Source: Bacteroidales bacterium
Lineage (GTDB): Bacteria; Bacteroidota; Bacteroidia; Bacteroidales; FEN-979
Direction: 5' to 3'
NCBI GenBank assembly: GCA_023229525.1
Contig: JALNZC010000018.1
Coordinates: forward strand, 4,242-68,241
Length of the DNA: 64,000 bases
Shown here: positions 1 to 64,000 of the stretch, in pieces
Numbering within the stretch: position 1 is the first letter of the stretch
How the letters are laid out: the number at the start of each line of letters is the position of its first letter
Notes under the pieces: generated by a model
The model's input: the letters and a program-made list of their open reading frames with translations, nothing else
The model's database searches: none
Told to the model about the DNA's origin: nothing
Position numbers and translations under genes: made by a program

Positions 1-11
1 AAAAAGAAAAT

Positions 12-72
12 ATGATGGATGATGGATTATAATTCAATAATTGTAAATCTAAAATCGTAATTCGTAAATTCT
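12..72. repeat. short degenerate tandem units (gatggat x2; aatcgtaa/aattgtaa-like 8-mers) just 3' of the carrier-protein stop
   Basis: Read directly: tgatggatgatggat, then aattgtaaatctaaaatcgtaattcgtaaattc. Short and degenerate. Confidence 0.35.
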
Positions 73-669
73 TCAGGGTTTATCTTCTAATTTGATCATC
101 AACTGGTGGGCGGTCACGGTATCACCTTCCCGGACCAGTATTTCATGAACGATTTTTTCGCCGGTGGATTTGAATTCGCTTTGCATTTTCATGGCCTCCA
201 CCACGATCAATGTCTGGCCAGCAACCACTGTTTCTCCAATGGTAATGGGAATTTTGATTACTTTTCCGGGCATGGGAGAGGTAACATGGTTTGCTCCTTC
301 CGGTTCCTGCCCCTGGTTGCGGTTATTGATATACTTTGTTTCAGCGTCGATTATTTCAACATTGAATGTTTTTGCAAAGGTGTTGACAATATATTTCTTG
401 CTTGAATCTCCTTCGATGAGTTCGACATTATAAGAATGACCGTTAAAAAGGATGGAATAAACCCCATTTTCCACTTCCACGATATCGAGGTCGTATTTCC
501 GGTCATCCACTGCGATCAGCGCTTTATTACCGACCCGGTTGAGGAGCTCAATATTCGCTAAGCGGTGTTCGATGCTAACTTCATATGCCATAATATTATT
601 TATAACCGTAAATTCATTCTTTATTACTGTAAATTTTTCATAATCGTAAAACGTTCCGTTTTCTGCCAA
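73..669 (-). CDS. biotin carboxyl carrier protein (biotinyl domain) of a biotin-dependent acyl-CoA carboxylase
   Basis: 198-aa ORF. The C-terminal biotinyl domain carries the E-A-M-K-M biotinylation motif (LIVVEAMKMQSEF). It lies directly downstream of the biotin carboxylase gene and overlaps it by 32 nt. Start uncertain; an alternative Met is at 591. Confidence 0.85.
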   Translation of the reverse strand: MAENGTFYDYEKFTVIKNEFTVINNIMAYEVSIEHRLANIELLNRVGNKALIAVDDRKYDLDIVEVENGVYSILFNGHSYNVELIEGDSSKKYIVNTFAKTFNVEIIDAETKYINNRNQGQEPEGANHVTSPMPGKVIKIPITIGETVVAGQTLIVVEAMKMQSEFKSTGEKIVHEILVREGDTVTAHQLMIKLEDKP

Positions 670-2146
670 AATCTTTCCAGTTGTTACCTATATCTTCGGT
701 ATTTTTCGGAGGCCGGACCCGTGACAATTTGTCAAGATAGTCGATGAACGCTGCAATTATTGCCATATCTTCGCATTGTGTCCCACACAATTTCGAAGTG
801 AATAGCCGTTCGTGGTTATCTTCAATAAAATGTGTATTGTATTTCCCATCGATAAAGGCCGGAGTATCCATGATGCGTTCGAGAAATTTGATCGATGTGG
901 TAACTCCAGTAATCTTGTATTCATATAATGCCCGACGCATTCTGGCAATCGATTCTTTCCGGGTCTGACCCCACGTGATCAATTTACAGATCAAGGGGTC
1001 ATAATACATGGGTATTTCATATCCTTCATAAACATATCCGTCATAGCGCACTCCCAGACCAAGCGGTTCGGTTATGTGTTTGATGATACCTGGATTCGGC
1101 ATAAAGTTGTTATCGGGATCTTCGGCATAAATACGGCATTGTATGGCATGCCCGTGCTGATAAAGTTCGTCCTGTTTGAATGAAAGTGGGAGTCCGTTGG
1201 CAATGTTGATTTGTTCCTTCACAAGGTCGACACCGACGACGCGTTCGGTTACCGGATGTTCCACCTGCAAACGGGTATTCATTTCCAGGAAGTAATATTC
1301 AAGCTGATCACTGACAATGAATTCGATTGTTCCGGCTCCTTCATAATTTACCGCTTTGGCGGCAGCCACTGCTTTTTCACCCATCTCTCTGCGTAAATCC
1401 GGCGTCATGAGCGGGGACGGGGTCTCTTCGATCACCTTTTGATGCCTGCGTTGGATGGAACATTCGCGTTCGAACAGGTGAATAACATTTCCATGCTGGT
1501 CGGCGAGTATCTGGAATTCAATATGATGCGGTGACTCGATATATTTTTCAATATATACCGAATCGTCACCGAAGGCATTTAAGGCTTCCGAACGGGCCAT
1601 CCGTATCATAGGTATAAGATCATCCATGGATTTTATCAACCGCATCCCTTTGCCACCCCCTCCGGCAGAAGCCTTTATCATCACCGGGAATCCGATCTTG
1701 TTACAGATCATTTTGGCTTGTTCTTCATCGGTCAGTTTCTCAGTAGTTCCGGGTACGACCGGGACCCCTGACTTGATCATTGTTTTCCGGGCTGTGATCT
1801 TGTCCCCCATTGTGGTAATGGCATAAGCATCAGGTCCGATGAATTTTATGCCTTCCTGTTTGCATCGTTCCGAGAATGCTGCATTTTCCGAAAGGAAACC
1901 ATATCCCGGATGGATGGCATCAGCTCCTGCCTTTTTTGCGGCATCGATGATGGCCTCAATATTGAGATAACTGTCGCGTGAAGGTGCAGGTCCTATGTAA
2001 TAGGCTTCATCTGCATACCTGACATGCATGGCTTTCCGATCGGCATCAGAAAAAACGGCCACCGTGACCAATCGCAGTTCCCGGCAAGACCGCATGACCC
2101 TTAAGGCAATCTCACCACGATTAGCCACGAGTACTTTTTTGATCAT
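638..2146 (-). CDS. accC: biotin carboxylase (ATP-grasp subunit of acetyl/propionyl-CoA carboxylase)
   Basis: 502 aa. N-terminus MIKKVLVANRGEIALRVMRSCRE, glycine-rich loop KASAGGGGKGMR, EMNTRLQVEHPVTE block. Adjacent to the carrier protein. Confidence 0.95.
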   Translation of the reverse strand: MIKKVLVANRGEIALRVMRSCRELRLVTVAVFSDADRKAMHVRYADEAYYIGPAPSRDSYLNIEAIIDAAKKAGADAIHPGYGFLSENAAFSERCKQEGIKFIGPDAYAITTMGDKITARKTMIKSGVPVVPGTTEKLTDEEQAKMICNKIGFPVMIKASAGGGGKGMRLIKSMDDLIPMIRMARSEALNAFGDDSVYIEKYIESPHHIEFQILADQHGNVIHLFERECSIQRRHQKVIEETPSPLMTPDLRREMGEKAVAAAKAVNYEGAGTIEFIVSDQLEYYFLEMNTRLQVEHPVTERVVGVDLVKEQINIANGLPLSFKQDELYQHGHAIQCRIYAEDPDNNFMPNPGIIKHITEPLGLGVRYDGYVYEGYEIPMYYDPLICKLITWGQTRKESIARMRRALYEYKITGVTTSIKFLERIMDTPAFIDGKYNTHFIEDNHERLFTSKLCGTQCEDMAIIAAFIDYLDKLSRVRPPKNTEDIGNNWKDFGRKRNVLRL

Positions 2147-2321
2147 GTATTCAAACTATTTAATCAGAGTCAAAAAATCAAAACTATTAAAAAAATGAAT
2201 TCAAGAAGAGAATATATCTATCTATTTATAGATATTTAACATTTTGATTGATTTAAACAGCATTCCGGTTGCTTTTCGTTCCAAATTTTTCCGATCTTTG
2301 CTGCAAGATTTTCTGTACTTC

Positions 2322-3284
2322 ATGCCCTTACAAAAAACCCTTTTTCTCATTTTTTTACTCCTGATAACGGGGTCCTCCTGTCAGACCGACCTGTCAAAAA
2401 ATCATTCCTTATCCAGTCTCCCGATTCCCGGACAAAAAGAAAAAGCATTGGATAACAAACCTTTACTGGCGGCTCTCGAATCGCTTCGGAAAGACCCTTC
2501 CTTAAAAAACGGTTCATTGGGTTACCTGGTGGTAGATATCACTGCGAAAAATCCGGTTGTCGTTGCAGATTATCGTTCCAAATGGCCAATGATGCCTGCA
2601 TCAACCCTGAAAATTTTTGTAACCGGCGCCGCACTTGATATTCTCGGAAAAGAAATCATTCCTGAAGTCACCATCACCAACCTAATGAGTGTGAATTGGC
2701 GTTCATCAAAATTACTCCGGAAAATCGGGGGAAAGGTTTATAACACCGCCACTACCGTTGGAGGTGTTAAAGCTATTCTCGACTTCTGGGAAGAGCGGGG
2801 AGTTGATACCCATGGGATGTTTTTTTACGATGGTAATGGCTTGTCACGCAGGAACGCGATCTCCCCGAAGCAACTGGTTGACGCTCTATATGCCATCAGG
2901 ACCTCCCCCAGTTTTCACTATTTCTATGAATCACTTCCTCTTGCAGGCCTGACCGGCACTTTGCATAAGGCCATGAAAGGGACCGCAGCTGAAGGCCGCA
3001 TCCATGCAAAGACAGGCACCATTTCAAAGGTGAAAAGTTTCGCCGGATATATCTCAACCCTATCCGGACGGAGGCTGGTATTTTCCCTGCTTGTCAACGA
3101 TTTCGATTGCCGTCCGAAATTGATGAAGAAGAAACTCGAGGCCGTACTGATTAAAATGGCGGAGATTAAGAAGCAGGATGCAGGATGCAGGATACAGGAT
3201 AAAAGGTCGCTGCGCTCCCGATGCTGGATGCTGGATGATAAAAGAGGGATGATTTCAAAGGGTGGATGGTTGGCCGAGAATTAG
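2322..3284 (+). CDS. D-alanyl-D-alanine carboxypeptidase/endopeptidase (PBP4 / peptidase S13 family), lipoprotein-type signal
   Basis: S-x-x-K active-site motif (PASTLKIF) and KTG motif (HAKTGTISKV). I prefer the ATG at 2322 (MPLQKTLFLIFLLLITGSSC signal) over the TTG at 2244. The last ~35 codons read through heptamer array 3173-3238. Confidence 0.75.
   Translation: MPLQKTLFLIFLLLITGSSCQTDLSKNHSLSSLPIPGQKEKALDNKPLLAALESLRKDPSLKNGSLGYLVVDITAKNPVVVADYRSKWPMMPASTLKIFVTGAALDILGKEIIPEVTITNLMSVNWRSSKLLRKIGGKVYNTATTVGGVKAILDFWEERGVDTHGMFFYDGNGLSRRNAISPKQLVDALYAIRTSPSFHYFYESLPLAGLTGTLHKAMKGTAAEGRIHAKTGTISKVKSFAGYISTLSGRRLVFSLLVNDFDCRPKLMKKKLEAVLIKMAEIKKQDAGCRIQDKRSLRSRCWMLDDKRGMISKGGWLAEN
3173..3238 (+). 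repeat. family A heptamer array (gcaggat/gctggat) with a GGTCGCTGCGCTCCCGATG leader module, inside the 3' end of the PBP4-like ORF
   Basis: Read directly: gcaggatgcaggatgcaggatacaggat aaaaggtcgctgcgctcccgatgctggatgctggatga. Confidence 0.9.
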
Positions 3285-5116: not shown

Positions 5117-5179
5117 GGGTGCAAAGATAGAAGATTAAGGTTAAATAACTTCCGTTTTTGCCGGCCTGTTTTTATTTTT

Positions 5180-5187
5180 TACCTTTG
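5180..5187 (+). promoter_or_regulatory. candidate Bacteroidota -7 promoter box (TAnnTTTG) for rbfA
   Basis: tacctttg ends 4 nt before the rbfA ATG (5192), which would imply a near-leaderless transcript. This is a motif match only. Confidence 0.3.
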
Positions 5188-5191: not shown

Positions 5192-5533
5192 ATGGAATCC
5201 ACACGTCAGCAAAAAATTTCACGTCTTATCCAAAAGGAATTGGGCGTCATTTTTCAGCAGGAAGCCCGGAACCTGTTCGAAGGGGCACTGATCACAGTGA
5301 CCAAGGTACAGGTTACCAAAGATCTGGCCATCGCCAGGGCAAACCTTAGCCTTTTTGGTATCAAGGATAAAAATGCCCTGCTCGAAAAAATCCGGCATCA
5401 TACTCGGGAATTAAGGCATCATATGGTCCGGCAGATCCATGATCAGTTGCGGATCATGCCTGAGTTGCAGTTTTATCTCGACGATTCGCTGGATTATATT
5501 GACAATATTGATCACTTGCTGAAGGACGGATAG
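5192..5533 (+). CDS. rbfA: ribosome-binding factor A
   Basis: 113 aa with the typical RbfA N-terminus (RQQKISRLIQKELGVIF...VTKVQVTKDLAIARA). Confidence 0.9.
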   Translation: MESTRQQKISRLIQKELGVIFQQEARNLFEGALITVTKVQVTKDLAIARANLSLFGIKDKNALLEKIRHHTRELRHHMVRQIHDQLRIMPELQFYLDDSLDYIDNIDHLLKDG

Positions 5534-5672
5534 AGGTCGCTTCGCTCACGATGCTGGATGAATGGTCGCTTCGCTCCCGATACTGGATGCTGGATGCTGG
5601 ATGCTGGATGCTGGATAAAAAATATTTCCGTTGGAGTCCCGTCATTTGAATTTTGAGTATTAAATTTTGAGG
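5534..5672 (+). repeat. composite intercistronic element: family A heptamer array (ctggatg) with two GGTCGCTTCGCTC(A/C)CGAT leader modules, then a TTTGAATTTTGAG-type U-rich module abutting the next start codon
   Basis: Begins the nucleotide after the rbfA stop (5533). The array runs to ~5617. The module catttgaattttgagtattaaattttgagg (5643-5672) ends 7 nt before the ATG at 5680. Confidence 0.85.
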
Positions 5673-5679: not shown

Positions 5680-6501
5680 ATGCAATACGACCCTATAAAA
5701 AAATCGCTGGGTGGCGTGTTTAACAAAACTCCATTACTGCGGATTTTGTTCTATAAACTGCTTGATCTCTTACTTTTGCGAGCCTGGTACGTCCGTCGGG
5801 AAATAAAACGATGGGCAAAGGATCTTTCTAGGCATGAGGGTCGCCGTTGTGCTATTCTCGATGCGGGTTCGGGCTTCGGCCAGTATACCTATTTCCTGAC
5901 AGGACTGAATCCGCTCTGGTTTGTGGATGCAGTGGATGTAAAGGAGGAACAGATCGCTGATTGCAATGATTTTTTCACCCGGATCAATCGTAACAATGTG
6001 CTCTTCGAAAAAGCGGACCTGACTTCTTTTATCAAACCTGACAAATTCGACTTGATCCTGTCGGTCGATGTCATGGAACACATTGCCGATGATGAAAAGG
6101 TATTCCGCAACTTCTATGATTCCCTCACCCAACAGGGTATGTTGCTGATATCCACCCCATCTGACCAGGGTGGGTCTGATGTACACGATCACGAGGATAG
6201 CTCTTCCTTTATCGATGAACATGTGCGTGACGGCTATAACATGTCAGACATACGAGGTAAGCTGGAAAGTGCGGGATTCACCAATACAGAAGCCTATTAC
6301 ACTTATGGAGCACCGGGGAAAACCGGATGGCGGCTTTCGATGAAATATCCTATTTTGATGTTGAATACTTCCAGGCTTTTTTTCATCCTTCTCCCTATTT
6401 ACTATATTATCGTATATCCCATCGCTTTTTTTTGTAATTGGCTGGATACCTGTTTTCATCACAAGTCGGGGACGGGGTTGATCGTGAAGGCTTGGAAATA
6501 A
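5680..6501 (+). CDS. class I SAM-dependent methyltransferase with a C-terminal hydrophobic segment
   Basis: 273 aa with SAM-binding motif I (ILDAGSGFGQY) and DLILSVDVMEHI. Confidence 0.8.
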   Translation: MQYDPIKKSLGGVFNKTPLLRILFYKLLDLLLLRAWYVRREIKRWAKDLSRHEGRRCAILDAGSGFGQYTYFLTGLNPLWFVDAVDVKEEQIADCNDFFTRINRNNVLFEKADLTSFIKPDKFDLILSVDVMEHIADDEKVFRNFYDSLTQQGMLLISTPSDQGGSDVHDHEDSSSFIDEHVRDGYNMSDIRGKLESAGFTNTEAYYTYGAPGKTGWRLSMKYPILMLNTSRLFFILLPIYYIIVYPIAFFCNWLDTCFHHKSGTGLIVKAWK

Positions 6502-6503
6502 AA

Positions 6504-6680
6504 ATGAGTGAATGAAGGAATGAAGGAATGAAGGAATGAAGGAATGAAGGAATGAAGGATTGAGTGAATGAGTGATTGAGTGATTGTGTGGGTGAATCAA
6601 TGAATGATTGACAAAGTATCAAACTGCAATAAACGTCTTTAACTTTTAACTTTTGACTTTTGATTTTTGACTTTTGAATT
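6504..6680 (+). repeat. composite intercistronic element: family C octamer array (gaatgaag) - ATGAATGA core - family D module (cttttgac/ttttgatt units)
   Basis: The gaatgaagg array starts 3 nt after the methyltransferase stop (6501). Core: gaatcaatgaatgattgac. The module ctttaacttttaacttttgacttttgatttttgacttttga runs into the TTG start of the next gene (6674). Confidence 0.9.
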
Positions 6681-7909
6681 TCCCTTTTTATATAGCCCGC
6701 AGGTACCTGGTTTCGAAGAAATCGCATAACATCATCAATATTATTTCTGCGATTTCAATTGTTGGCGTTGCCATCGGAGCCATGGCGCTCATCATTGTGC
6801 TTTCGGTGTTCAACGGGTTCGAAAAGCTGGTTGTTTCCCTTTTCAGTTCATTCAATCCCGATATGCAGGTCACGGTCAGGCATGGCAAAACCTTTGATAT
6901 CAATAAGATTCCCCTGGACCAGTTGCGAAAAATTCCTGGTATTGTTCATCTTACCGATGTGATCGAAGAGGATGCCCTGATCAAATACAAGGAGAAACAA
7001 ACCATTGTTACAATAAAAGGAGTTGGCCAGGAATTTATCCATATGAGCGGGATTGACACGATGATGGCGGAAGGAGATTTCAAACTTCAGGACAAGGACC
7101 AAAATTTTGCTGTACTGGGATACGGAATAGCCTCAACGATAGGCGCTAACCTTAAAGATTATCTGAATCCGCTGGTGGTATATGTTCCGCGTCGGGATGC
7201 TTCCTTGTCCGGAGGATTTGAAAATGCCTTCAGTTCAGATGTAATATTTCCGGCAGGTTTTTTTTCAATTCAACAGGATTATGACGTTAAATATGTTCTC
7301 CTCCCTTTACGGTTTGTGCAGAATCTGTTGGATTATGGAAACGAACGGACAGGCCTTGAAATGAGTCTGGCCAGGGGCTCGGATCAGCAAAAGATCCAGC
7401 GACAGATTGAAACCTTCATGGGTAATGAATTCCGGGTTCAAAACCGGTTTCAGCAACAGGAGATCCTCTATAAAATCATGAGATCGGAAAAACTCTATAT
7501 TTTCCTCATCCTTTCATTCATCCTGTTCATGGCGACGTTCAATGTGATCGGATCGCTTTCGATGCTAATTCTCGATAAGAGAAAAGATATCGCTTTACTG
7601 CGGAGCATGGGAGCAAGTCAACGCATTATCCGGTGGATTTTTTTTATCGAAGGAATACTTATCTCTTTAATCGGCGCTGTAGCCGGATTAGTATTGGGAG
7701 CCGCTGTCTGCTGGATACAGATCCGTTATGGGATTATCGCATTGGGATCCCCTGACAGCAGTTTTGTGGTGAGCGCCTATCCGGTTCATTTACAAATCGC
7801 TGACTTTGTCCTTGTATTCACAACTGTTCTATCGATCGGATTTCTTGCAGCCTGGTATCCCGTGTACAATATCCGTAAAATTCATCTCGGGCTTATTAAA
7901 CCGGATTAA
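6674..7909 (+). CDS. FtsX-like ABC transporter permease (LolC/E-type lipoprotein-releasing family)
   Basis: 411 aa. N-terminus FPFYIARRYLVSKKSHNIINIISAISIVGVAIG is typical of LolC/E. Large periplasmic loop followed by a C-terminal 3-TM FtsX domain. TTG start inferred. Confidence 0.85.
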   Translation: MNFPFYIARRYLVSKKSHNIINIISAISIVGVAIGAMALIIVLSVFNGFEKLVVSLFSSFNPDMQVTVRHGKTFDINKIPLDQLRKIPGIVHLTDVIEEDALIKYKEKQTIVTIKGVGQEFIHMSGIDTMMAEGDFKLQDKDQNFAVLGYGIASTIGANLKDYLNPLVVYVPRRDASLSGGFENAFSSDVIFPAGFFSIQQDYDVKYVLLPLRFVQNLLDYGNERTGLEMSLARGSDQQKIQRQIETFMGNEFRVQNRFQQQEILYKIMRSEKLYIFLILSFILFMATFNVIGSLSMLILDKRKDIALLRSMGASQRIIRWIFFIEGILISLIGAVAGLVLGAAVCWIQIRYGIIALGSPDSSFVVSAYPVHLQIADFVLVFTTVLSIGFLAAWYPVYNIRKIHLGLIKPD

Positions 7910-10152: not shown

Positions 10153-10156
10153 AACA

Positions 10157-10774
10157 ATGATTAAAATAAAGATTAAAACACAGATTAAAACTTTATGTGT
10201 TTTTTGTGGCTCCAGTCTTGGAAACCAACAGGTTTTTACCGCAAAAGCCGGAGAATTGGCGGAAATTCTGTGTAATAAGAATATCACGTTGGTTTATGGC
10301 GGCGCCAATGTAGGGCTGATGCAGGTACTGGCCGATACAATGCTTGCATCTGGAGGAAAGGTTGTTGGCGTTATGCCTAAATCGCTTGTGGAGCGGGAAG
10401 TTGCTCACAAACAACTTACGGAAATGCACATCGTGGCAGATATGCAGGAACGGAAAGCGCTCATGGCCGATCTCTCGGATGCATTTATCGCCCTTCCGGG
10501 GGCCTATGGCACACTGGACGAACTTTTTGAGATCCTGACATGGAACCAGCTCGGAATCATAAAAAAACCCATCGGTCTGCTCAATATCGCGAATTTTTTT
10601 ACACCCTTGCTTGCTATGCTCGATAATGCCGTAAAGGAAAGATTTCTCCGGATCGAACACCGAAACATTCTTCAGGTAGCCGAGGATATTTATGAGCTGT
10701 TTGAGAAACTCGAATCCTTTCAGCCGGTCACCGCCGAAAAATGGATCGAACGACTTAAACAAGGAAAAATCTAA
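10157..10774 (+). CDS. LOG-family (TIGR00730) nucleotide phosphoribohydrolase
   Basis: LCVFCGSS, YGGANVGLM and PGAYGTLDELFE motifs. The ATG at 10157 is chosen because the upstream extension overlaps the M20 gene. Confidence 0.85.
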   Translation: MIKIKIKTQIKTLCVFCGSSLGNQQVFTAKAGELAEILCNKNITLVYGGANVGLMQVLADTMLASGGKVVGVMPKSLVEREVAHKQLTEMHIVADMQERKALMADLSDAFIALPGAYGTLDELFEILTWNQLGIIKKPIGLLNIANFFTPLLAMLDNAVKERFLRIEHRNILQVAEDIYELFEKLESFQPVTAEKWIERLKQGKI

Positions 10775-10903
10775 TTTGAAAATTTGAAAATTTGAAGATT
10801 TGGGGATTTGAGGATTTGAAGATTGAGGGATTTGAGAATGAATATTAGTTTTGATTTTTGAGTTGTGGTTTTGAACTTTGAATTTTGAGCTTTGAACTTT
10901 GAC
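10775..10903 (+). repeat. composite family D element: (gatttgaa/gatttgag) array - ATGAATAT core - TTTTGATTTTTGAGTTGTGGTTTTGAA module
   Basis: Begins the nucleotide after the LOG stop (10774) and ends 10 nt before the next ATG (10913). The right half is near-identical to 25612-25676. Confidence 0.9.
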
Positions 10904-16777: not shown

Positions 16778-18805
16778 TTATTCGTCCCTCGTCCTTCGTC
16801 CTTCGTCCCTCGTCTTTCGTCCCTCGTCCTTCGTCCCTCGTCCCTCGTCCTTCGTCATTTTTATCCGGCTATGACGCCTGCTGTATCCGAAATAAATAAT
16901 CAGACCAACAGAAAGCCAGATGAGAAAACGCAACCAGTTGGTCACACCGAGATGGGCCATGAGGTAAAAGTTGGTCAGCAGTCCGAGAACAGGGATCAGG
17001 GAAAGTTGTTTCCAAATACCCACAAATGTTAGGATGATTGCTGAAAGGATAAAGATCAGGATGGGGAATTCCTGGCTGATTAAAGTGGTAATTCCAGATT
17101 TTGGATACTGGATACTGGATGCTGGATGCTGGATGCTGGATACTGGATGCTGGATGAATGAGGGGATGAACTTTTCAAGCTCCGGTGGTCGCCAGGAAAA
17201 GAGCAGAACAAAAATTCCGATCCAGATCAGGGGAAGAAAATAGCGGCTGTTGAGGTACGGGATATTGAAACCCTTTTCCGTAGGAAATTTTTCATTTTTT
17301 CTCCCGTTACCATCGAGTACAAGTACTCCACCAGAAACGAGGATGAATGCAAAAAGGGTCCCGATACTTGTTAAATCGGTAACTTCTGTAAGATTCATGA
17401 AAAGGGATGGAATTGCAACCAATATCCCTGCGATGATCGTAGAAAACCAGGGGGTTTTGTACCGCGAATGAATCTTTGAAAACGACTTTGGGAGTAAACC
17501 GTCGCGACTCATACTCATCCATATCCGGGGTTGTCCCACCTGAAAAACCAGCAGGACACTGGCCATGGCAACCACAGCGCTGAGGGCGATCACGCCGGAA
17601 AGTTTTGTGAGATGAAGTTTTTGAAAGGCATATGCCAGTGGATCTCCTACGCCCAACTCGCTGTAATGAAGCATTCCCGTTAAAACAAGACTGATCGTGA
17701 TGTACAGAACAGTAGTGATGACCAGCGCCAGGATGATTGCCCTGGGAAGGTCGCGGCGGGGATTACGGCATTCTTCGGCAGTCGTGGAAATGGCATCAAA
17801 ACCGATATAGGCAAAAAACACGCCTGACACCCCTTTTAACACGCCCGACAGGCCATTGGGCGCAAAAGGATGCCAGTTCCCGGGGTCAATATAAAATGAA
17901 CCTACCACAATGATGAGCAATAAAATCCCGATCTTCAGCAATACCATGGTGTTACTGGCCACTTTGGTTTCATAAATTCCAATGTATACCAGTGCGGAAA
18001 TGAATACCACGATGGAAAATGCAGGGATATCGGCAATGATGCGGATTCCCGCAATCACGGGTGCGTTTTGCCATGCCCTGAATGATTCCTGTAGCGCATC
18101 GGAGAGACTTCCCATGGGTATCCCTTTGGCGAGCTCATTCACAACGGTATGATAACCCCGTGAGGCTGACAGGTAATCCACACTTAGATATTCCGGAATG
18201 TGAAGTCCGGTTCCGTTGACGAATCCGGTAAAGTAATCCGACCATGAAATGGCAACGGCAATATTGCCAATGGCATATTCCATGATCAAATCCCAGCCGA
18301 TGATCCAGGCAATCAACTCACCGAAACTCGCATATGCATATGTGTAGGCACTTCCGCTGATAGGTATGACGGAGGCGAACCGGGCATAGCATAAGGCCGA
18401 AAACCCGCAGGCCATCGCTGTAAAGAGAAAAAGAAGAGAAACTGCCGGACCACCACTGGCAGCGGCATTTCCGATGGTACTGAAGATTCCCGCACCAATG
18501 ACCGCTGCTATACCCAATCCCGTCAGGTCATAAACGGTCAGGTTTTTTTTAAGCTCCGTTCCATCTCCTTCCCGGCTGTGGGCGTCCTGCAAAATACGGG
18601 CGATCGATTTTTTACGGAAGAGGTGGAAATTTACCACGCCGGAAATTTTTGATAAAGGTAAAATATTTCCGTTCAAATCCGGATCAATCCCATAGATGTT
18701 CATACTGATTTTGATTAGCTTTGCCCGTAAATTCTCATTTCCTTTCTGGTGAGATATCAATCTTGCCGGGTTCATATGCTTGCAAATAAGTTTTGGGTAT
18801 TCCAA
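16778..18805 (-). CDS. APC-superfamily amino-acid permease (cationic amino-acid transporter type with a C-terminal 2-TM extension)
   Basis: GIGAAVIGAGIFSTIG, FAYIGFDAISTTAEE, and the C-terminal module NWLRFLIWLSVGLIIYFGYSRRHS. It contains heptamer array 17101-17157 in a loop and ends in array 16781-16856. Start uncertain; alternative Mets are at 18775 and 18703. Confidence 0.85.
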   Translation of the reverse strand: MEYPKLICKHMNPARLISHQKGNENLRAKLIKISMNIYGIDPDLNGNILPLSKISGVVNFHLFRKKSIARILQDAHSREGDGTELKKNLTVYDLTGLGIAAVIGAGIFSTIGNAAASGGPAVSLLFLFTAMACGFSALCYARFASVIPISGSAYTYAYASFGELIAWIIGWDLIMEYAIGNIAVAISWSDYFTGFVNGTGLHIPEYLSVDYLSASRGYHTVVNELAKGIPMGSLSDALQESFRAWQNAPVIAGIRIIADIPAFSIVVFISALVYIGIYETKVASNTMVLLKIGILLLIIVVGSFYIDPGNWHPFAPNGLSGVLKGVSGVFFAYIGFDAISTTAEECRNPRRDLPRAIILALVITTVLYITISLVLTGMLHYSELGVGDPLAYAFQKLHLTKLSGVIALSAVVAMASVLLVFQVGQPRIWMSMSRDGLLPKSFSKIHSRYKTPWFSTIIAGILVAIPSLFMNLTEVTDLTSIGTLFAFILVSGGVLVLDGNGRKNEKFPTEKGFNIPYLNSRYFLPLIWIGIFVLLFSWRPPELEKFIPSFIQHPVSSIQHPASSIQYPKSGITTLISQEFPILIFILSAIILTFVGIWKQLSLIPVLGLLTNFYLMAHLGVTNWLRFLIWLSVGLIIYFGYSRRHSRIKMTKDEGRGTKDEGRKTRDEGRRTRDE
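16781..16856 (-). repeat. family B heptamer array (gacgaag/gacgagg, ~11 units) forming the last ~25 codons of the permease ORF
   Basis: The plus strand reads ttcgtccctcgtccttcgtcc... It translates as KDEGRGTKDEGRKTRDEGRRTRDE followed by the stop. Confidence 0.9.
17101..17157 (+). repeat. family A heptamer array (8 units of ctggatg/ctggata) embedded antisense in the permease CDS
   Basis: ttggata ctggata ctggatg x3 ctggata ctggatg x2. It is translated from the minus strand as SFIQHPVSSIQHPASSIQYP. Confidence 0.9.
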
Positions 18806-19487: not shown

Positions 19488-19570
19488 AGAGGGAGGGACG
19501 AGGGACGAAGGACGTGGGACGTGGGACGTGGGACGAAGGACGAGGGACGAGGGACGAAGGACGAGGGACG
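19488..19570 (+). repeat. family B heptamer array (ggacgag/ggacgaa/ggacgtg)
   Basis: agagggagggacgagggacgaaggacgtgggacgtgggacgtgggacgaaggacgagggacgagggacgaaggacgagggacg. Starts 9 nt after the stop at 19479, in a convergent gap. Confidence 0.9.
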
Positions 19571-19630
19571 AAAAAAATGACAAATGATCGGGATTGGTTA
19601 TGATGGTGTGTAGCAGAGAATTTTTTGCGG

Positions 19631-21544: not shown

Positions 21545-21597
21545 TATCCGGTTTTTAATCAGCCGGCAAAGGTAAGAAGAATCGAGTGATAAATGAC

Positions 21598-21743
21598 AAG
21601 TGAGGGAATGAAGGATTGAAGGAAAGAAGGATTGATTTATTGAATACCTGATGGGCGAGGGACGAAGGACGAAGGACGAGGGACGAAGGACGAAGGACGA
21701 AGGATGAAAGCATAAAATGGATGCCGGATGCTGGATACTGGAT
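21598..21743 (+). repeat. junction of three array families: C (gaatgaagg, 21598-21636), B (ggacgaa, 21654-21708), A (ctggatg, 21716-21743)
   Basis: Read directly. Lies between the dxs start and the DUF59 gene stop. A further ggagata-type unit block follows at 21766-21790. Confidence 0.9.
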
Positions 21744-21792
21744 AATACCAGGGGTTCTTGTAAATATCACCTATCACCTATCTCCCATCCCT

Positions 21793-22460: not shown

Positions 22461-22484
22461 CAACTCATTTATAAATATAAAATC

Positions 22485-25552: not shown

Positions 25553-25676
25553 AGATTGAAAAAAGATTTGAAAATTTGAAGATGTGAAAATTTGAAAATG
25601 TGAAGATTTGAAAATGAATATATAATTTTGATTTTTGAGTTGTAGTTTTGAATTTTGAATTTTGAATTTTGAGTTT
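25553..25676 (+). repeat. composite family D element (gatttgaa/gatgtgaa array - ATGAATAT core - TTTTGATTTTTGAGTTGTAGTTTTGAA module), antisense to the suf genes
   Basis: Fills the sufD-sufS spacer. The right half is near-identical to 10838-10903. Confidence 0.9.
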
Positions 25677-25693
25677 TTATCCCCTATTTCCTA

Positions 25694-27874: not shown

Positions 27875-28142
27875 TCTGCTAATTAACAAATTCAAAACTC
27901 AAAAGTCAAAAGTCAAAACTAAAGTTCAAAACTCAAAAGTAAAAAATTTGCTTAAATCGGACTATCCACCACCAAAGGAGGTGGCTTTTCGCCCGATTTA
28001 TGGCTTCGCCACCGCAAATTCTTTTTAAAAAACCGGCAAAGCCAAACATACATTACCACCGTCAAAGACGGTGGGTTTTAAAGTCGTACTAAAATTCATC
28101 TTCAAATTTCCAAATTTCCAAATTTTCAAATCTCCAAATCAT
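27875..28142 (-). repeat. family D composite element interrupted by a ~150-nt unique insert that carries two hairpins
   Basis: On the minus strand: a gatttgga/gatttgaa array (28142-28095), a gATGAATTTT core, the insert (28094-27946), then a ttttgagttttgaac/ttttgac module (27945-27875) ending 3 nt before the sufC ATG. Hairpins: ccaccgtc-aaa-gacggtgg and ccacc...ggtgg. Confidence 0.85.
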
Positions 28143-31780: not shown

Positions 31781-31886
31781 CAATTGGCATGAACCCCAGG
31801 CCCTGGACCCGAATTCCTCCTTCTTCTTTCGTCCTTCGTCTTTCGTCCTTCGTCCTTCTTAAGGTCCGGGGATGAGATGATTAAAT
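31781..31886 (+). repeat. dispersed element copy R3, a hybrid whose central part is replaced by family B heptamers in minus orientation
   Basis: The left end (caattggcatgaaccccaggccctggacccgaattcc) and right end (ggtccggggatgagatgattaaat) match R1/R2. The middle reads cttctttcgtccttcgtctttcgtccttcgtccttctt. Confidence 0.8.
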
Positions 31887-42452: not shown

Positions 42453-42620
42453 GCTCGCTACGCTCGCGATGAGCTCGCTTTGCTCGCTGATGCTGGATGC
42501 AGGATGCAGGATACAAGATGCAGGATACAAGATGCAGGATGCAAGATGCAGGATACAAGATGCAGGATGCAGGATACAAGATGCAGGATACAAGATACAA
42601 GATTCTGGATACTGAATACT
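42453..42620 (+). repeat. family A heptamer array (gcaggat / acaagat variants, ~17 units) preceded by a GCTCGCTACGCTCGCGATG-type leader module
   Basis: Begins the nucleotide after the peptidase stop (42452). The acaagat variant unit is shared only with the inverted array at 45328-45434. Confidence 0.9.
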
Positions 42621-45056: not shown

Positions 45057-45221
45057 CGTTCAGGTTATTTTATTTTCAAACTTACATAATAATCACGATT
45101 CATACACGCACCGCATAAAAATCCATCAGTTTTATAGAGGAAAGATACACGAACTCCTGGAATTAGATAGGAGATGGGAGATAGGAGTTAAACTTTCGCA
45201 ATTGCGGGTCGGGTGTCGGTT

Positions 45222-45305
45222 AAAGATCACATCGCGGCTGCGTCTCGAGCCGCACAGCCATACCGCACAACCGAAGCTCTCGCCAAGGCCGCTTATGTGA
45301 TCTTT
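45222..45305. other. GC-rich 84-nt element closed by an 11-bp inverted repeat (aaagatcacat / atgtgatcttt); candidate structured RNA or repeat relic
   Basis: The arms are at 45222-45232 and 45295-45305. There is an inner hairpin gcggct-gcgtctcg-agccgc and a nearby 10-nt palindrome cgcaattgcg (45197-45206). Confidence 0.4.
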
Positions 45306-45327
45306 CAACCTCCGTAAAATATTTTAT

Positions 45328-45434
45328 TCTGCATCCTGCATCTTATATCCTGTATCCTGCATCTTGTATCCTGTATCCTGCATCCCGCATCCTGCATCCC
45401 GCATCCTGCATCCCGCATCCTGCTTCCTGCATCA
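45328..45434 (-). repeat. family A heptamer array in inverted orientation (plus strand reads atcctgc/atcttgt/atcccgc units)
   Basis: ctgcatcctgcatcttatatcctgtatcctgcatcttgtatcctgtatcctgcatcccgcatcctgcatcccgc... Lies in the divergent spacer between the radical SAM gene and pdxB. Confidence 0.9.
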
Positions 45435-45500: not shown

Positions 45501-46634
45501 ATGTTTCCTCGTATTATTGCCGATGATAAAATTCCATTTCTGAAAGGCGTTCTGGAACCCTTTGCCGAAATCCATTATCTGCCGGCAACTGCCATAACCC
45601 ATGCCGTTTTATCTGCTGCCGACGCTTTACTTATCCGCACACGGACGATTTGCAATGAAATGCTTCTTCGGGATACGCCCGTACAATTCATCGGTACAGC
45701 TACCATTGGGTTTGATCATATCGACACCAATTACTGCGATTCCCGGAAGATCCGTTGGGTCAACGCTCCCGGATGCAATGCCTCTTCCGTTCAGCAATAT
45801 ATTGCTTCGGCTTTGTTCACTCTGGCAAAGCGCGAAGGATTCCACCTGAGAGATAAAACGCTCGGCATTATCGGGGTTGGACATGTGGGATCAAAAGTGG
45901 AAAAATTGGCTCACAACCTGGGAATGCAGGTATTGTTAAATGATCCGCCACTGGAACGGCAGAAAGGACCGGAAAAATTTGTAACGCTTTCAACCCTGCT
46001 TAGGGAATCAGATATCGTTACTTTGCATGTTCCCCTCAACGTCCATGATCCGGATAAAACTTACCATCTGATCGGACCGGAATCGATTGGGAAAATGAAA
46101 GCCCGGTCATGGCTGATCAATTCTTCCCGAGGAGAAGTGGTTGATCAGGAAGCGCTATCTGTGGCGCTGCAGGAGAAGAAACTGGCCGGCGCTGTGCTGG
46201 ATGTCTGGGAAAATGAACCGCAAGTGAGTTCCGGTCTGATATCGCAAATCTCTATTGCGACACCCCATATTGCAGGATATTCTGCCGACGGAAAAGCCAA
46301 CGGAACTGCAATGGTGGTTCAGGCATTGGCTCATCACTTCGACCTGCCTTTAAAAAACTGGTTTCCCTTGAATATACCTGTGCCACCGGAACCGCTTATC
46401 CTGATCGATGGAAATGGAAAAACCACGGAAGAAATTGCAGCAGAAGCGGTTCTGAAAACATACGACATTCTGAAGGATGATACCCGTTTCCGGATTAATC
46501 CGGCCGGATTTGAACAGCAGCGCTGGGCTTACCCCTTAAGAAGGGAATTCCCGGCATACCAGGTAAAAGTGTCAAATGGCCATGCTGAGGCAGTTGAAAT
46601 TCTCAGAAATCTTGGATTTCAGGTGATGCTGTGA
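45501..46634 (+). CDS. pdxB: 4-phosphoerythronate dehydrogenase
   Basis: 377 aa. N-terminus IIADDKIPFLKGVLEPF, NAD-binding GIIGVGHVGSKV, D-2-hydroxyacid dehydrogenase core, and a PdxB-type C-terminal extension. Confidence 0.85.
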   Translation: MFPRIIADDKIPFLKGVLEPFAEIHYLPATAITHAVLSAADALLIRTRTICNEMLLRDTPVQFIGTATIGFDHIDTNYCDSRKIRWVNAPGCNASSVQQYIASALFTLAKREGFHLRDKTLGIIGVGHVGSKVEKLAHNLGMQVLLNDPPLERQKGPEKFVTLSTLLRESDIVTLHVPLNVHDPDKTYHLIGPESIGKMKARSWLINSSRGEVVDQEALSVALQEKKLAGAVLDVWENEPQVSSGLISQISIATPHIAGYSADGKANGTAMVVQALAHHFDLPLKNWFPLNIPVPPEPLILIDGNGKTTEEIAAEAVLKTYDILKDDTRFRINPAGFEQQRWAYPLRREFPAYQVKVSNGHAEAVEILRNLGFQVML

Positions 46635-46703
46635 GATGGTGAGATGGTGAGATGGTGAGGTGGTGAAATGGTGAAATGGTGAGATGGTGAAATGGTGAAA
46701 TGG
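46631..46703 (+). repeat. family E octamer array (gagatggt/gaaatggt, ~9 units)
   Basis: The pdxB TGA stop (46632-46634) is itself part of the first unit (gtgagatggtgagatgg...). Confidence 0.9.
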
Positions 46704-51537: not shown

Positions 51538-51708
51538 AGATGGTGAGATGGCGAAATGGTGAGATGGTGAGATGGTGAGATGGTGAGATGGTGAGCTCGT
51601 GAGCTCGTGAGTTGGTGAACTGGTGAGCTACCGAGTTTGCGTGTTAAAAAAACTTTTAACTCGCCAGTTCACCAGTTCACCATTTCGCCATCTCAAAATC
51701 TCGCCAAC
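51538..51708. repeat. family E octamer array followed by an inverted partial array, forming a long imperfect hairpin
   Basis: Forward units run 51538-51630 (gagatggt, gagctcgt, gaactggt variants). The inverted units (ccagttcaccagttcaccatttcgccatctc) run 51661-51708. Hand pairing: 51601-51637 with 51658-51694, including 17 contiguous pairs, and loop 51638-51657. Confidence 0.85.
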
Positions 51709-55116: not shown

Positions 55117-55176
55117 GGGTTATCTTATTACGCCACTGAATGCCAGGGCGGGCAAAGATACAAAAAAAGTGAACGA

Positions 55177-55217
55177 GTCACGGGTTGCGGGTTGCGAGTT
55201 ACGGGTTATGGGTTGCA
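55177..55217 (+). repeat. family H heptamer/octamer units (cgggttg / gggttac / gggttat)
   Basis: gtcacgggttgcgggttgcgagttacgggttatgggttgcag. A related caagttgcaagttgcgggtg occurs at 63649-63670. Confidence 0.7.
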
Positions 55218-62420: not shown

Positions 62421-62448
62421 CTGGTACGGATTCGTGAATCCGTACCAG
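62421..62448. promoter_or_regulatory. perfect 13-bp inverted repeat (ctggtacggattc-gt-gaatccgtaccag); candidate operator or hairpin
   Basis: Read directly. Lies in the 192-nt divergent spacer, 20 nt upstream of the AraC-type gene ATG (62469) and 145 nt from the giant gene start. Confidence 0.5.
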
Positions 62449-62468
62449 AGATTTATTATCTTTACCAT

Positions 62469-63647
62469 ATGGAACTATTCATTAAAATTCTCTACGTGCT
62501 TCCAATCTATCAATCGGCGATTCTTGCTATTTTATTATTTACTTCCGGCAGTCGTGAAAGTTGCTGTTCGAAGCTGATCATGGGTGCATTTCTTTCCACC
62601 ACCGGTATCTATTTTTCCTTCAATTTGTTGTACAGCTTAAGTAGTTTTGATTTGCTGAAGAAACTCTATTTTCTGATCCTTCCCATTATCCTGGCCTTTA
62701 TACCCTTATTTTATCTCTACCTGGAATCCATTACCACTCCGGGTTTTCATTTCCGGAAGAAGCAGTTATGGCATTTTTTACCTGCAGCCATTTTTTTTAT
62801 TTTAATGAGTCCCTATTTCTTTGCCACGGAACATGAAAAATATTTGTATATCAACCATGATTTCATACGACCGGGCATGAGTCCGGTCATACTATACCTT
62901 CTTATTGTTTACATTAGTGGAACTTACCTTGTGTCCAACCTGCAACTCGGATATTACGTATACAGGTCCCTACAACTTTTTCACCGGCACAAGATCTATA
63001 TTGTCAACCGTTTCTCTTATACCGAAAACATTCACCTTGACTGGATCAAGTCGTTGATATTTTGCTTTGTCGTTTTTTTTCTGATCAATGAATTGCTTTA
63101 TATCACTGGTATAAAGCAACATCTTTTTTCAGGGATTTTTTATAATGTATCCATGCTGGGGGTTATTCTTTTCGCCGGGTATCATGGGATGGAGCAAAAG
63201 AACCTTGAGAAGGAAGAGAAGGAAGAAACAGAAATACAAGCGGAGATATCTGCAGAAGTTCCGGAAAAGATCAAATATTCAGGTTCATCTCTTACGGTTG
63301 CACAGAAAAAGGCGCTTATCGCGAAGCTTGAGTTACTGATCCTGGATGAGAAAATCTATACTAACAAAGAACTGAGCATTGAAGATGTCGCTCAACGCCT
63401 GGAGACCAATTCAAAATATATTTCACAGATACTGAATGAGCATTACCAGAAAAATTTCTTTACTTATATTAATACTTACCGCGTTGAAGAAGCACAGCGT
63501 TTATTGTCGTCCGACAAAACCCGGAAATACTCCATTCTCGGCATTGCGCAGATGGCCGGGTTTACTTCCAAATCATCGTTTTATGAAGCATTTAAAAATA
63601 TTACAGGAACAACGCCCAATGAGTTCAGGAAGAAATTAAAGTGCTAA
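62469..63647 (+). CDS. AraC-family transcriptional regulator with an N-terminal multi-TM sensor-like domain
   Basis: 392 aa. About 6-7 TM segments (aa 1-235), an acidic linker, and a C-terminal AraC HTH (SIEDVAQRL...YINTYRVEEAQRLL...IAQMAGFTSKSSFYEAFKNITGTTPNEFR). Confidence 0.85.
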   Translation: MELFIKILYVLPIYQSAILAILLFTSGSRESCCSKLIMGAFLSTTGIYFSFNLLYSLSSFDLLKKLYFLILPIILAFIPLFYLYLESITTPGFHFRKKQLWHFLPAAIFFILMSPYFFATEHEKYLYINHDFIRPGMSPVILYLLIVYISGTYLVSNLQLGYYVYRSLQLFHRHKIYIVNRFSYTENIHLDWIKSLIFCFVVFFLINELLYITGIKQHLFSGIFYNVSMLGVILFAGYHGMEQKNLEKEEKEETEIQAEISAEVPEKIKYSGSSLTVAQKKALIAKLELLILDEKIYTNKELSIEDVAQRLETNSKYISQILNEHYQKNFFTYINTYRVEEAQRLLSSDKTRKYSILGIAQMAGFTSKSSFYEAFKNITGTTPNEFRKKLKC

Positions 63648-63648
63648 T

Positions 63649-64000
63649 GCGCAAGTTGCAAGTTGCGGGTGAGATGGCGAGATGGTGAGATGGTGAGATG
63701 GTGAAATGGTGAGATGGTGAGATGGTGAAATGGTGAGATGGTGAGATGGTGAAATGGTGAAATGGTGAAATGGTGAGATGGTGAGATCGTGAGAATAGTG
63801 AGATGGTGAGATGGTGAGATGGTGAAATGGTGAGATGGTGAAATGGTGAAATGGTGAGATGGTGAGATGGTGAGATGGTGAGATGGTGAGATGGTGAAAT
63901 GGTGAGATGGTGAGATGGTGAGATGGTGAAATGGTGAGATCGTGAGAATAGTGAGATGGTGATAAGGTAAACTGGCGAATTGACGAACTGGCGAAATTAT
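63649..64000 (+). repeat. family H units followed by the longest family E octamer array (about 40 units; truncated by the window end)
   Basis: gcgcaagttgcaagttgcgggtg, then gagatggt/gaaatggt units from 63671. The variant doublet gagatcgt-gagaatagt occurs at 63783 and 63936. Degenerate gaactggc/gaattgac units lie at the end. Confidence 0.9.

Follow-up and report, generated by a model that had tools for sequence, protein, structure and literature searches.

Heptamer and octamer tandem arrays beginning near stop codons in a Bacteroidales genome and its relatives

Tandem arrays of 7- and 8-nt units occur in many of the gene spacers of a 64,000-nt stretch of a Bacteroidales metagenome-assembled genome (MAG; contig JALNZC010000018.1), assigned here to an uncultured member of the Prolixibacteraceae. 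This stretch as a whole is called the window here, and the subject of this work is how its arrays compare with repeats described in other bacteria. The classic multi-family case is reportedly that of the cyanobacterial short tandemly repeated repetitive (STRR) heptamers of Mazel et al. (1990). STRR units are CCCCAGT, TTGGTCA and CAACAGT, with no octamers; several families occur per genome as tandem arrays at dispersed non-coding loci, in or next to operons, and they are shared by related genera. To our knowledge, the description of STRR includes neither anchoring at stop codons nor a purine-to-pyrimidine polarity. The simple sequence repeats of contingency loci have units mostly of 1-5 nt, a few of 7 nt, and lie in the 5' coding regions or promoters of surface and virulence genes. 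Clustered regularly interspaced short palindromic repeats (CRISPR) are 24-48 nt long, alternate with unique spacers of similar length and have cas genes nearby, and repetitive extragenic palindromes and the mosaic elements built from them (REP/BIME) are dispersed imperfect palindromes of 20-40 nt, often of alternating orientation. The term STRR is used in PMC2670836 and PMC4046671.

The heptamers GGGAATC of Xanthomonas and GGGGA(C/T)T of Nostoc/Anabaena are about 90% intergenic (Rehm et al. 2015, PMC4692102). Their mean distance is 28 nt to the open reading frame (ORF) on the 5' side and 160 nt to the next one; they are situated near or overlapping the stop codon of the 5' ORF, mostly between co-directional and rarely between divergent genes. 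The same loci carry them in related species with varying length and sequence, most are transcribed and some form inverted pairs; no function was found, the neighbouring genes have no function in common and phase variation was judged unlikely (PMC4692102). Arrays of TAACTGA and other heptamers have been described in Beggiatoaceae, cyanobacteria and five Bacteroidetes (MacGregor 2015, PMC4679880). The TAACTGA unit contains stop codons in the forward orientation, its orientation is tied to the neighbouring gene, and RNA-level roles involving S1, Csp and CsrA were proposed; Gramella forsetii and Aequorivita have long mixed-heptamer arrays in spacers that are shorter and repeat-free in close relatives (PMC4679880). 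As summarized in the same article, the survey of long simple sequence repeats (LSSR) by Mrazek et al. (2007) found that repeats with units of 5-11 nt are in excess in a sporadic, lineage-specific manner, heptanucleotides being the commonest, and that units which are not multiples of three are excluded from coding sequence; polymerase slippage was proposed as their origin.

The arrays of the window belong to this known class of long simple sequence repeats and heptamers and are not a new system, because the same anatomy has been published for other phyla. A first-pass annotation of the window had implied that a stop-anchored system of this type was novel, a suggestion that has to be withdrawn in view of the stop-proximal heptamers of PMC4692102 and the multi-family heptamers, Bacteroidetes included, of PMC4679880. 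In every structural feature that was tested the arrays resemble LSSR, STRR and stop-proximal heptamers; only in G-quadruplex units and in the unit sequences of STRR do they depart from them. A literature search on Prolixibacteraceae and tandem repeats yielded nothing relevant. As to origin, we favour, with somewhat better than even confidence, the reading that these are slippage-driven microsatellites which persist only at the dispensable position after a stop codon, are filtered by selection on reading frame and transcript, and are homogenized into genome-wide families.

Tandem Repeats Finder (TRF; 68 rows, merged) detected 34 arrays with a period of 7, 8 or multiples of these, 1902 bp in total, whereas 30 dinucleotide-preserving shuffles of the window averaged 3.2 arrays and 62 bp, with at most 7 arrays in any one of them. 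These values match the approximately 20 loci and 2 kb of the first-pass annotation, and all eight families named there were recovered where they had been placed. The TRF units and start positions are as follows.

Family A, CTGGATG/GCAGGAT: 3173, 5579, 17102, 21718, 42489, 45329
Family B, GGACGAA/GAGGGAC: 16782, 19493, 21656, 31814
Family C, GAATGAAG: 6503, 21601
Family D, GATTTGAA with TTTTGAC/TTTTGAA: 6638, 10774/10849, 25566/25624, 27888/28098
Family E, GGTGAGAT/GGTGAAAT: 46631, 51538, 63668 (the last with 36.6 copies)
Family G, AGATAGG: 45165
Family H, CGGGTTG: 55174
Weak type, AATCGTAA: window start

The weak unit recurs elsewhere in true arrays, as ATTTACG in two relatives (L011 and L028) and as AAATCGT in at least five metagenome loci. 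On our own gene map, 13 of the 23 gaps of at least 100 nt bear arrays (three of the 23 contain small genes), and arrays cover 26-86% of the array-bearing spacers and 22% of all long-spacer bases. The statement that arrays fill most of the larger spacers was generous. Pfam searches confirmed the identities proposed for the flanking genes: rbfA (5192-5533), a methyltransferase (5680-6501), LOG (10028-10774), an NAD-binding oxidoreductase (18862-19479), an S9 peptidase (40383-42452), a pdxB-type dehydrogenase (45501-46634) and an AraC regulator (62469-63647). The stop and array positions given for them were correct to within a few bases (6501/6503, 10774/10774, 19479/19488-19493, 42452/42453, 63647/63651, and the pdxB TGA at 46632-46634). 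For rbfA, repetitive sequence does start at the stop, from about 5534-5535, but the heptamer run itself starts at 5579, after a leader of about 29 nt that is present twice. The individual features, by coordinates and strand, are these.

12..72, no strand assigned: weak repeats at the window edge, ATGATGG x2.3 and AATCGTAA-type
3173..3237, plus strand: A-family arrays within the S13 peptidase ORF 2244-3284; GCAGGAT x4, leader TCGCTGCGCTCCCGATG, GATGCTG x2.6
5534..5616, plus strand: array directly following the rbfA stop (5531-5533); leader of about 29 nt twice, then GATGCTG x5.4
6503..6590, plus strand: C-family array, GAATGAAG x7.8 grading into GATTGAGT, 1 nt past the methyltransferase stop; sense purine fraction 0.77
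6638..6690, plus strand: T-rich heptamer array, TTTGACT x6.3, 5' of an FtsX-like permease gene
10774..10902, plus strand: composite D element, ATTTGAAG x6.4, non-repeat core, TTTTGAA x7.9; starts at the LOG stop and occupies 86% of the LOG/AAA-kinase spacer
16782..16856, minus strand: B-family in-frame array, GGGACGA x10.7, encoding the C-terminal tail KDEGRGTKDEGR... of an amino-acid permease
17102..17156, minus strand: A-family in-frame array, GCATCCA x7.9 on the sense strand, encoding the permease loop SSIQHPASSIQ...
19488..19571, plus strand: B-family array, GAGGGAC x11.3, 9-13 nt past the oxidoreductase stop in a convergent spacer; its G3N4 spacing suggests G-quadruplex potential
21601..21782, minus strand: four arrays between an Fe-S assembly gene and dxs; in the sense direction stop, GGTGATA, GTATCCA, TCCTTCG x7.6, TTCCTTCA x4.4, dxs start
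25566..25677, minus strand: second copy of the composite D element, in the sufD-sufS spacer, inverted relative to the genes
27888..28140, minus strand: sufB-sufC spacer arrays; in the sense direction stop, GAAATTTG/TTGGAGAT x5 (28098-28140), a hairpin-rich middle, TGACTTT x8.4 (27888-27945)
31814..31858, minus strand: B-family array, GGACGAA (sense) x6.4, inside one copy of a dispersed REP-like element
42453..42612, plus strand: A-family array from the first base past the S9 peptidase stop, in a convergent spacer; 20-nt leader twice, GATGCAG/GATACAA x15
45165..45433, no strand assigned: G-type array AGATAGG x3.3 (45165-45187) and A-family array CTGCATC x15 (45329-45433), 5' of pdxB, in the only array-bearing divergent spacer of the window
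46631..46703, plus strand: E-family array, GTGAGATG x9.1; the TGA of the first unit is the pdxB stop TGA (46632-46634)
51538..51700, minus strand: E-family pair; in the sense direction stop, about six purine-rich units (51664-51700), loop, inverted CACCATCT x11 (51538-51637)
55174..55216, minus strand: H-family array, CGGGTTG x5-6, upstream of the start of the gene 51709-55116
63649..63995, plus strand: arrays behind the AraC stop (63645-63647), reaching the window end; GCAAGTT x2.3, GGTGAGAT x36.6 (63668-63962), AACTGGCG x3.2

That these arrays are neither CRISPR nor REP or BIME, as had been stated, was borne out. Their units are 7-8 nt long and contiguous and no cas domain was found among the 30 proteins scanned, which rules out CRISPR; single arrays are non-palindromic and weakly folding, which rules out REP/BIME, the separate REP-like element of the window being a different feature. 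Across the whole window Rfam gave no match at gathering thresholds and ARAGORN no tRNA or tmRNA. The STRR units CCCCAGT, TTGGTCA and CAACAGT had no match among the TRF consensus units of the window, nor are there TAACTGA arrays in it. By inspection, G3 tracts are limited to GAGGGAC (19488-19571) and CGGGTTG (55174-55216) and do not occur in families A, C, D and E, so that most families, judged from sequence, fall short of the at least four G3+ tracts required for a G-quadruplex.

Placement was studied in relatives collected by a SufD scan with one genome per species, which returned 80 loci. The close set (SufD 65-84% identical; 35 sequences, 638 kb) consisted of MAGs labelled Prolixibacteraceae, Draconibacterium or Bacteroidales, two of them at chromosome level, and the distant set (722 kb) of Bacteroidales loci with SufD 42-55% identical. 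Arrays of period 7/8 numbered 162 in the close and 42 in the distant set, corresponding to densities of 2.5 per 10 kb in the Prolixibacteraceae-like loci and 0.6 in the distant Bacteroidales; the dominant periods in the clade were 7 (108 arrays) and 8 (54 arrays). These counts show that the arrays are a property of the lineage and not of one assembly. Although 85% of the close-set sequence is coding, 140 arrays were intergenic, 9 straddled a gene end and 26 were genic. Among spacers of at least 60 nt, arrays were present in 61 of 137 co-directional, 12 of 36 convergent and 9 of 69 divergent ones; comparison of the latter with the other spacers (73/173) shows that arrays are depleted between divergent genes (Fisher p = 1e-5). 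In 28 of the 73 co-directional spacers examined for the distance between stop and first array, this gap was at most 3 nt (median 7 nt), whereas sliding the array block randomly within its spacer gave 16.2 such cases and in none of 2000 trials more than 25. For the gap to the start, the number of spacers at 3 nt or less (15) equalled the null, and the median was 19 nt. In nearly all of 13 array-bearing convergent spacers, an array lay within about 15 nt of one or the other stop. Stop anchoring is thus genuine yet partial, and there is a second class of arrays that adjoins start codons. The Bacteroidetes promoter consensus (TTTG-N19-21-TAnnTTTG) has only three perfect matches in the window, at 5157-5187, 22429-22460 and 40315-40347 (plus strand), just 5' of the starts of rbfA, of the gene at 22485 and of the S9 peptidase gene; all three are in spacers without arrays, so the T-rich arrays are no canonical promoters.

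The two classes differ in composition. Of 55 stop-proximal arrays, defined as lying at most 10 nt from the stop, 50 were purine-rich on the sense strand of the gene; their composition was A.37, G.30, C.10, T.22, with more G than C in 47 of 54, in agreement with the earlier observation in the window that the purine-rich strand is the sense strand of the upstream gene. The bias was retained when the suf operon (27/31) or the window itself (22/26) was left out. Arrays adjoining the next start had a T content of.50; 19 of 23 were rich in pyrimidines, nearly all had period 7, and TTTG and TTGA were enriched in these start-proximal units. Purine fraction dropped along the spacer (Spearman rho -0.44, p = 4e-6). 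The full gradient, from purine-rich after the stop to pyrimidine-rich before the dxs start, is displayed by the region 21545-21792 (minus strand). In the window the purine-rich strand is the plus strand after plus-strand genes and the minus strand after minus-strand genes. Since the direction of the genes sets the bias on either strand of the same window, it must be linked to transcription and is not an effect of the replication strand. Avoidance of Rho as the sole cause of the strand bias was rejected, because convergent spacers, in which there is no downstream cistron to protect, were equally biased (14/14). Predicted folding energies were -0.05 to -0.11 kcal/mol per nt for arrays, -0.19 for coding segments and -0.205 for array-free spacers. 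Because the arrays fold no weaker than their own shuffles (below), we regard the low structure as a by-product of composition and reject a selected lack of structure.

The turnover of arrays at one position can be followed in the suf operon. In the window, sufBCDS (24315-29594, minus strand) has a sufB-sufC spacer of 273 nt and a sufD-sufS spacer of 158 nt; the former contains three GC-rich hairpins between its two arrays, and the sufC ATG lies 15 nt past the TGACTTT array 27888-27945. The sufB-sufC spacer has a median length of 31 nt in the distant relatives and measures 27 nt in the closest relative, L003, where it contains a marginal A/T-rich repeat of 3 copies but nothing comparable to the arrays of the clade. 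In 34 close species its median length is 108 nt, with values up to 299 nt, and in most of them the arrays begin at, or include, the sufB stop, with junctions such as TAA/TGTGCTGATGTGC, TGA/TGTGGTAATGTGG, TAA/GTGATAAGTGATAAG and TAG/AATTAAGAATTAGG. The unit differs by species (TGATGTGC, AGCGAAA, CAATTGA, CGCGTGA, GATTTGAA), and ahead of the sufC ATG there is usually, across the clade, a heptamer array rich in T (TTTTGAA, TTTTGAC, TTTTGCA or TTTTCAA). At this spacer, therefore, the position of the array persists while its unit sequence turns over.

A metagenome scan with (GGTGARAT)x4, the octamer of family E, returned at least 120 loci containing 125 arrays and many other heptamer arrays; the counts that follow refer to the matches listed. 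A frame of at least 110 codons ending between -12 and +24 nt of the 5' edge of the array was found on the purine strand in 48 of 110 evaluable arrays and on the opposite strand in 9 of 108 (p = 1.5e-7). Junctions read TAA/ATGGTGAAATGG, and in 13 cases the array enters the last codons and itself supplies the TGA (...AAATGG/TGA/AATGG), pdxB in the window being another such case. Partner arrays rich in pyrimidines lay downstream of the GGTGARAT arrays in 23 cases and upstream in 3, and 30 of 100 E arrays folded with the downstream 150 nt at z < -2, 19 of them at z < -3. The anchoring of arrays at stop codons, as claimed by the first-pass annotation, is therefore beyond chance both in the relatives and in these loci; the claim was too narrow in that it missed the T-rich class adjoining starts and the arrays within coding sequence. 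Metagenome loci with homologous flanks on both sides also provided the unit-number polymorphism that had been proposed as a check: on assembled contigs, loci with 100%-identical flanks had 12 versus 13 units, loci with 96-99% flank identity had 6, 7, 9 or 10, and every pair with any flank divergence differed in unit number. Such differences are the behaviour expected of slippage, to which they point indirectly.

(GGTGARAT)x4 was absent from 2.9 million viral contigs. Arrays of 4-15 GGATGCW units were observed in ten viral contigs (L203-L212, IMG/VR), mostly of 52-68% GC; their apparently unrelated lineages suggest that this unit arises in unrelated high-GC lineages. Carriage by phages is not supported, as the E octamer is absent from the viral collection and the GGATGCW matches are uninformative.

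On the sense strand TGA occurs in 23 units, compared with 10.3 expected from shuffled units, and most stop-proximal units carry TGA, TAA or TAG. With periods of 7 or 8, which three does not divide, a unit needs only one stop triplet for all three frames to be closed within three units, and with stops in every frame slippage cannot alter the protein. The units of families A (CTGGATG) and B (GGACGAA) have no stop codon on either strand, and when such units occupy the stop position the reading frame continues. Thus, the S13 D-Ala-D-Ala carboxypeptidase ORF (2244-3284) has a 38-amino-acid C-terminal tail encoded by A-family units, which begins exactly at the stop of the L011 orthologue, and the amino-acid permease (16778-18805, minus strand) has the tail KDEGRGTKDEGR... 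derived from GGACGAG repeats and starting where its orthologues stop. The permease also has an in-frame CATCCAG insert in a loop; the L032 (SufD 65% identical) and L007 orthologues have a shorter form of it at this site, and it is absent from the L003 and L023 orthologues. Judging by these translations, some arrays have entered coding sequence and add predicted repeat-encoded tails or a loop to two proteins of the window.

Units are reused more often than chance allows. Identical units formed 20 pairs within a locus (0.9 expected) and 37 pairs between species (5.7 expected, shuffle maximum 12); single-linkage clustering at one mismatch chained most heptamers together and was not used for defining families. 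The leader TCGCTnnGCTCnCGATG occurs four times in the window (0.04 expected), at 3207, 5537, 5566 and 42455 (plus strand), at three genes, always directly 5' of A-family units and just past a present or ancestral stop, and is absent from 212 other loci. The composite (ATTTGAAG)n-core-(TTTTGAA)n occurs twice with a common non-repeat core of about 40 nt, one copy being inverted relative to the genes. Unit reuse, the leader and the composite copies together indicate that local slippage is insufficient and that either ectopic gene conversion or copying of composites is needed. No terminal inverted repeats or target-site duplications were seen on the composite copies, and no empty site was close enough to define their ends.

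According to the reading favoured above, replication slippage would change the length of arrays in both directions. A compact genome would leave just one part of a spacer dispensable, that right after the stop, upstream of the initiation region and away from promoters; arrays could therefore persist there, would often include the stop and would be scarce between divergent genes. Since arrays lie within operons such as sufBCDS they are presumably transcribed, and selection at the RNA level would give rise to the polarity, that is purine-rich, C-poor arrays with G>C after stops, T-rich heptamers before starts, and weak predicted folding. The limited library of units would recur by ectopic gene conversion or composite copying, which is the least secure step. 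We do not think that a dedicated function is required, although one may exist. Several observations weigh against this reading. A single unit, GGTGARAT, follows dozens of unrelated genes, which local slippage combined with tolerance does not explain. Unit families are shared by species whose SufD proteins are 65-80% identical (CATCCAG at the permease site of L032), a sign of possible constraint, and the retention of sufB-sufC arrays in most of the 34 clade species could reflect selection for the arrays. In convergent spacers the orientation of the array tracks the adjacent gene in 14 of 14 cases, and this is left unexplained since polarity exerted on a downstream cistron cannot act as a filter there. 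The folding z-score relative to the arrays' own mononucleotide shuffles is approximately 0, and composition by itself accounts for the low folding energy. Finally, many of the data points are orthologous and hence non-independent, and genes were called with our own ORF caller based on codon bias, which is crude, although stop codons are unambiguous.

The alternatives that assign a function to the arrays draw on the same polarity. They may be cis-elements of the mRNA, acting either as single-stranded platforms read in a 7-8-nt register by a protein of the S1, Csp, KH or RRM type or as unstructured insulators, invisible to Rho, that set the translation of the next cistron in a phylum not using Shine-Dalgarno pairing; taken jointly, these two versions are the main alternative, which we hold tentatively and do not expect to be correct. 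They would account for the strict link of polarity to transcription, for the order of purine-rich array after the stop and T- or pyrimidine-rich array before the start (with partners downstream in 23 and upstream in 3 of the listed metagenome loci), for the TTTG/TTGA enrichment near starts, for the conservation of unit families across species and their reuse within genomes, and for the persistence of arrays in the sufB-sufC spacer across most of the clade. Initiation in Bacteroidia, according to PMC6847099 and PMC7797042, relies on mRNA structure and upstream nucleotides rather than on Shine-Dalgarno pairing, and binding of S1, Csp or CsrA has been proposed for the TAACTGA repeats (PMC4679880). 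Against such cis-elements speak the wholly different units of different species at the one orthologous sufB-sufC position, the 27-nt spacer of L003, whose lack of a comparable array indicates that arrays are dispensable there, the unstable copy number, the composite copy 25566-25677 that is inverted relative to its genes, and the at least eight unrelated units in a single genome, which would need several binders or one unspecific binder; the very low predicted structure, which would suit a platform, follows from composition. A stronger form, in which a library of 7-8-nt units is installed after stops by a hypothetical copying mechanism and is recognized in the mRNA by a factor whose footprint is 7-8 nt, or serves to exclude Rho, we consider doubtful. 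If it were true, the arrays would be modular intercistronic or 3'-UTR elements in a phylum without Shine-Dalgarno-based coupling, and the purine-rich array after the stop and the T-rich array before the start would be its two functional halves. Signals at transcript ends, with a purine-rich array and a downstream pyrimidine-rich array pairing as a hairpin that terminates transcription or protects 3' ends, are quite improbable as an explanation. The long imperfect hairpin at 51538-51700, the array and inverted-array pairs in L023, L024, L032 and L056 and the listed E arrays that fold with downstream sequence (30 of 100 at z < -2, 19 at z < -3) fit this idea, as does the report that transcript starts or ends were commoner at G4-capable repeats than at controls (Rehm et al., PMC4692102). 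Most arrays, however, have no complementary partner and lack a GC-rich stem plus U-tract, hardly any structure is predicted for single arrays, and many are located within operons whose transcription has to continue past them (sufB-sufC, sufD-sufS); as the inverted partner is present in a minority of arrays only, the hairpin or terminator was rejected as a general explanation.

Other alternatives concern the way the arrays come to their sites. They could be small non-autonomous composite elements, copied by a templated or recombinational process to sites just 3' of stops and only resized by slippage. The leader TCGCTnnGCTCnCGATG found four times at three genes behind stops and 5' of A-family units, the two D elements with their common core of about 40 nt, the presence of GGTGARAT past the stops of dozens of unrelated genes and the 20 pairs of reused units are what such copying would leave behind; but they showed neither terminal inverted repeats nor target-site duplications, no associated transposase or reverse transcriptase was seen, no pair of filled and empty sites was close enough to mark insertion boundaries, the leader does not occur at the 212 other loci, family E is missing from the 2.9 million viral contigs, and ectopic gene conversion between independently arisen arrays could look alike. 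On balance we think this unlikely. It is very improbable that the arrays are contingency loci, in which changes of unit number switch genes on and off: unit number is polymorphic, and a slip of one unit in the in-frame CATCCAG array would shift the permease frame so that this gene could switch, yet nearly all arrays lie past the stops of housekeeping genes (rbfA, suf, dxs, pdxB, LOG) rather than in the promoters or the 5' coding parts of surface genes, promoter-bearing spacers are free of arrays, and the same verdict was reached for Xanthomonas and Nostoc (PMC4692102). That the arrays are artefacts of short-read metagenome assembly is hardly credible. The window is MAG sequence, long arrays such as 63668-63962 may in truth have another copy number than assembled, and one Logan contig of 1.3 kb, which encodes the exact PdxB, terminates within the pdxB arrays; but this contig and an independent 7.4-kb Joint Genome Institute (JGI) metagenome contig, which also encodes the exact PdxB, are both 100% identical to the window, arrays included. 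Moreover, more than 30 independent MAGs, some at chromosome level, and at least 120 metagenome contigs contain arrays of this class, and the in-frame coding arrays are conserved in orthologues. Slippage at a tolerated post-stop position, supplemented by gene conversion or copying between loci, remains the reading we prefer.

Some further features of the window were recorded. An unrelated dispersed repeat of about 90-140 nt is present in five plus-strand copies (15823-15910, 22226-22345, 31790-31885, 37203-37340 and 42627-42660), with a palindromic CTCCTT(A/G)AGGAG core and the end GATGAGGTG(A/T)TTAAA, and had no Rfam match at the gathering threshold; in the copy at 31790 the middle is replaced by a TTCGTCC array. 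The convergent spacer between the S9 peptidase and a radical-SAM gene contains a 34-codon lysine-rich ORF (MGKEKTVKKENKKEPTKSLKEKRAAKKEKKAAKR; 42736-42840, plus strand). The genes 49221-51500 and 51709-55116 (minus strand) are tandem paralogues with an Endonuclease_1 domain and a type IX secretion C-terminal sorting domain; the E-family pair 51538-51700, which folds into the hairpin mentioned above, separates them, and they are followed by a 2251-amino-acid ORF (55521-62276, minus strand). Two small genes, 23089-23439 (plus strand) and 23910-24248 (minus strand), are missing from our gene map. The former, by the look of its sequence a putative winged-helix regulator, overlaps the end of the ORF 22458-23153 by about 65 nt in another frame and may be frameshifted or split.

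The record of heptamer-class repeats goes back to 1990 for cyanobacteria and to 2015 for Xanthomonas; the present clade adds a dense and tractable example, of value for its many unit families, gene-tied orientation, two-part layout and arrays that supply stops or extend proteins; cultured relatives such as Draconibacterium are available. In practice, short-read assemblies break at the arrays, spurious ORFs arise from them on the stop-free strand and annotated proteins acquire repeat tails; the arrays could also be used as markers for strain typing.

Compared with the heptamers of Xanthomonas and Nostoc, the arrays of the window clade are likewise close to stops, intergenic, depleted between divergent genes and sometimes present as inverted pairs. 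The differences are that in those genomes one G-rich quadruplex unit dominates and four units are preferred, whereas here at least eight unrelated 7- and 8-nt units occur, most of them not of the G4 type, with copy numbers up to 36 and with a second, T-rich class adjoining starts; and that both strands are used about equally in Xanthomonas, in contrast to the clear purine-strand bias found here. With the TAACTGA repeats they share the intergenic location, units containing stops and an orientation tied to the neighbouring gene, but TAACTGA is mostly found in 2-6 copies a few nt 5' of starts, while the main class here begins at the stop of the upstream gene. Contingency loci resemble them in that unit number changes by slippage, and differ in that the arrays described here follow the stops of housekeeping genes. 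The summary of the LSSR survey contained in PMC4679880 neither highlights Prolixibacteraceae nor includes stop anchoring or a transcription-linked polarity. Like STRR, the arrays form several heptamer families at many non-coding loci; unlike STRR, they are found in another phylum, have other units and include octamers, and they are an analogue of STRR and not the same families. What appears to be new is the lineage, the mixture of heptamers and octamers from at least eight families, and the layout in which a purine-rich array after the stop is followed by a T-rich array before the next start.

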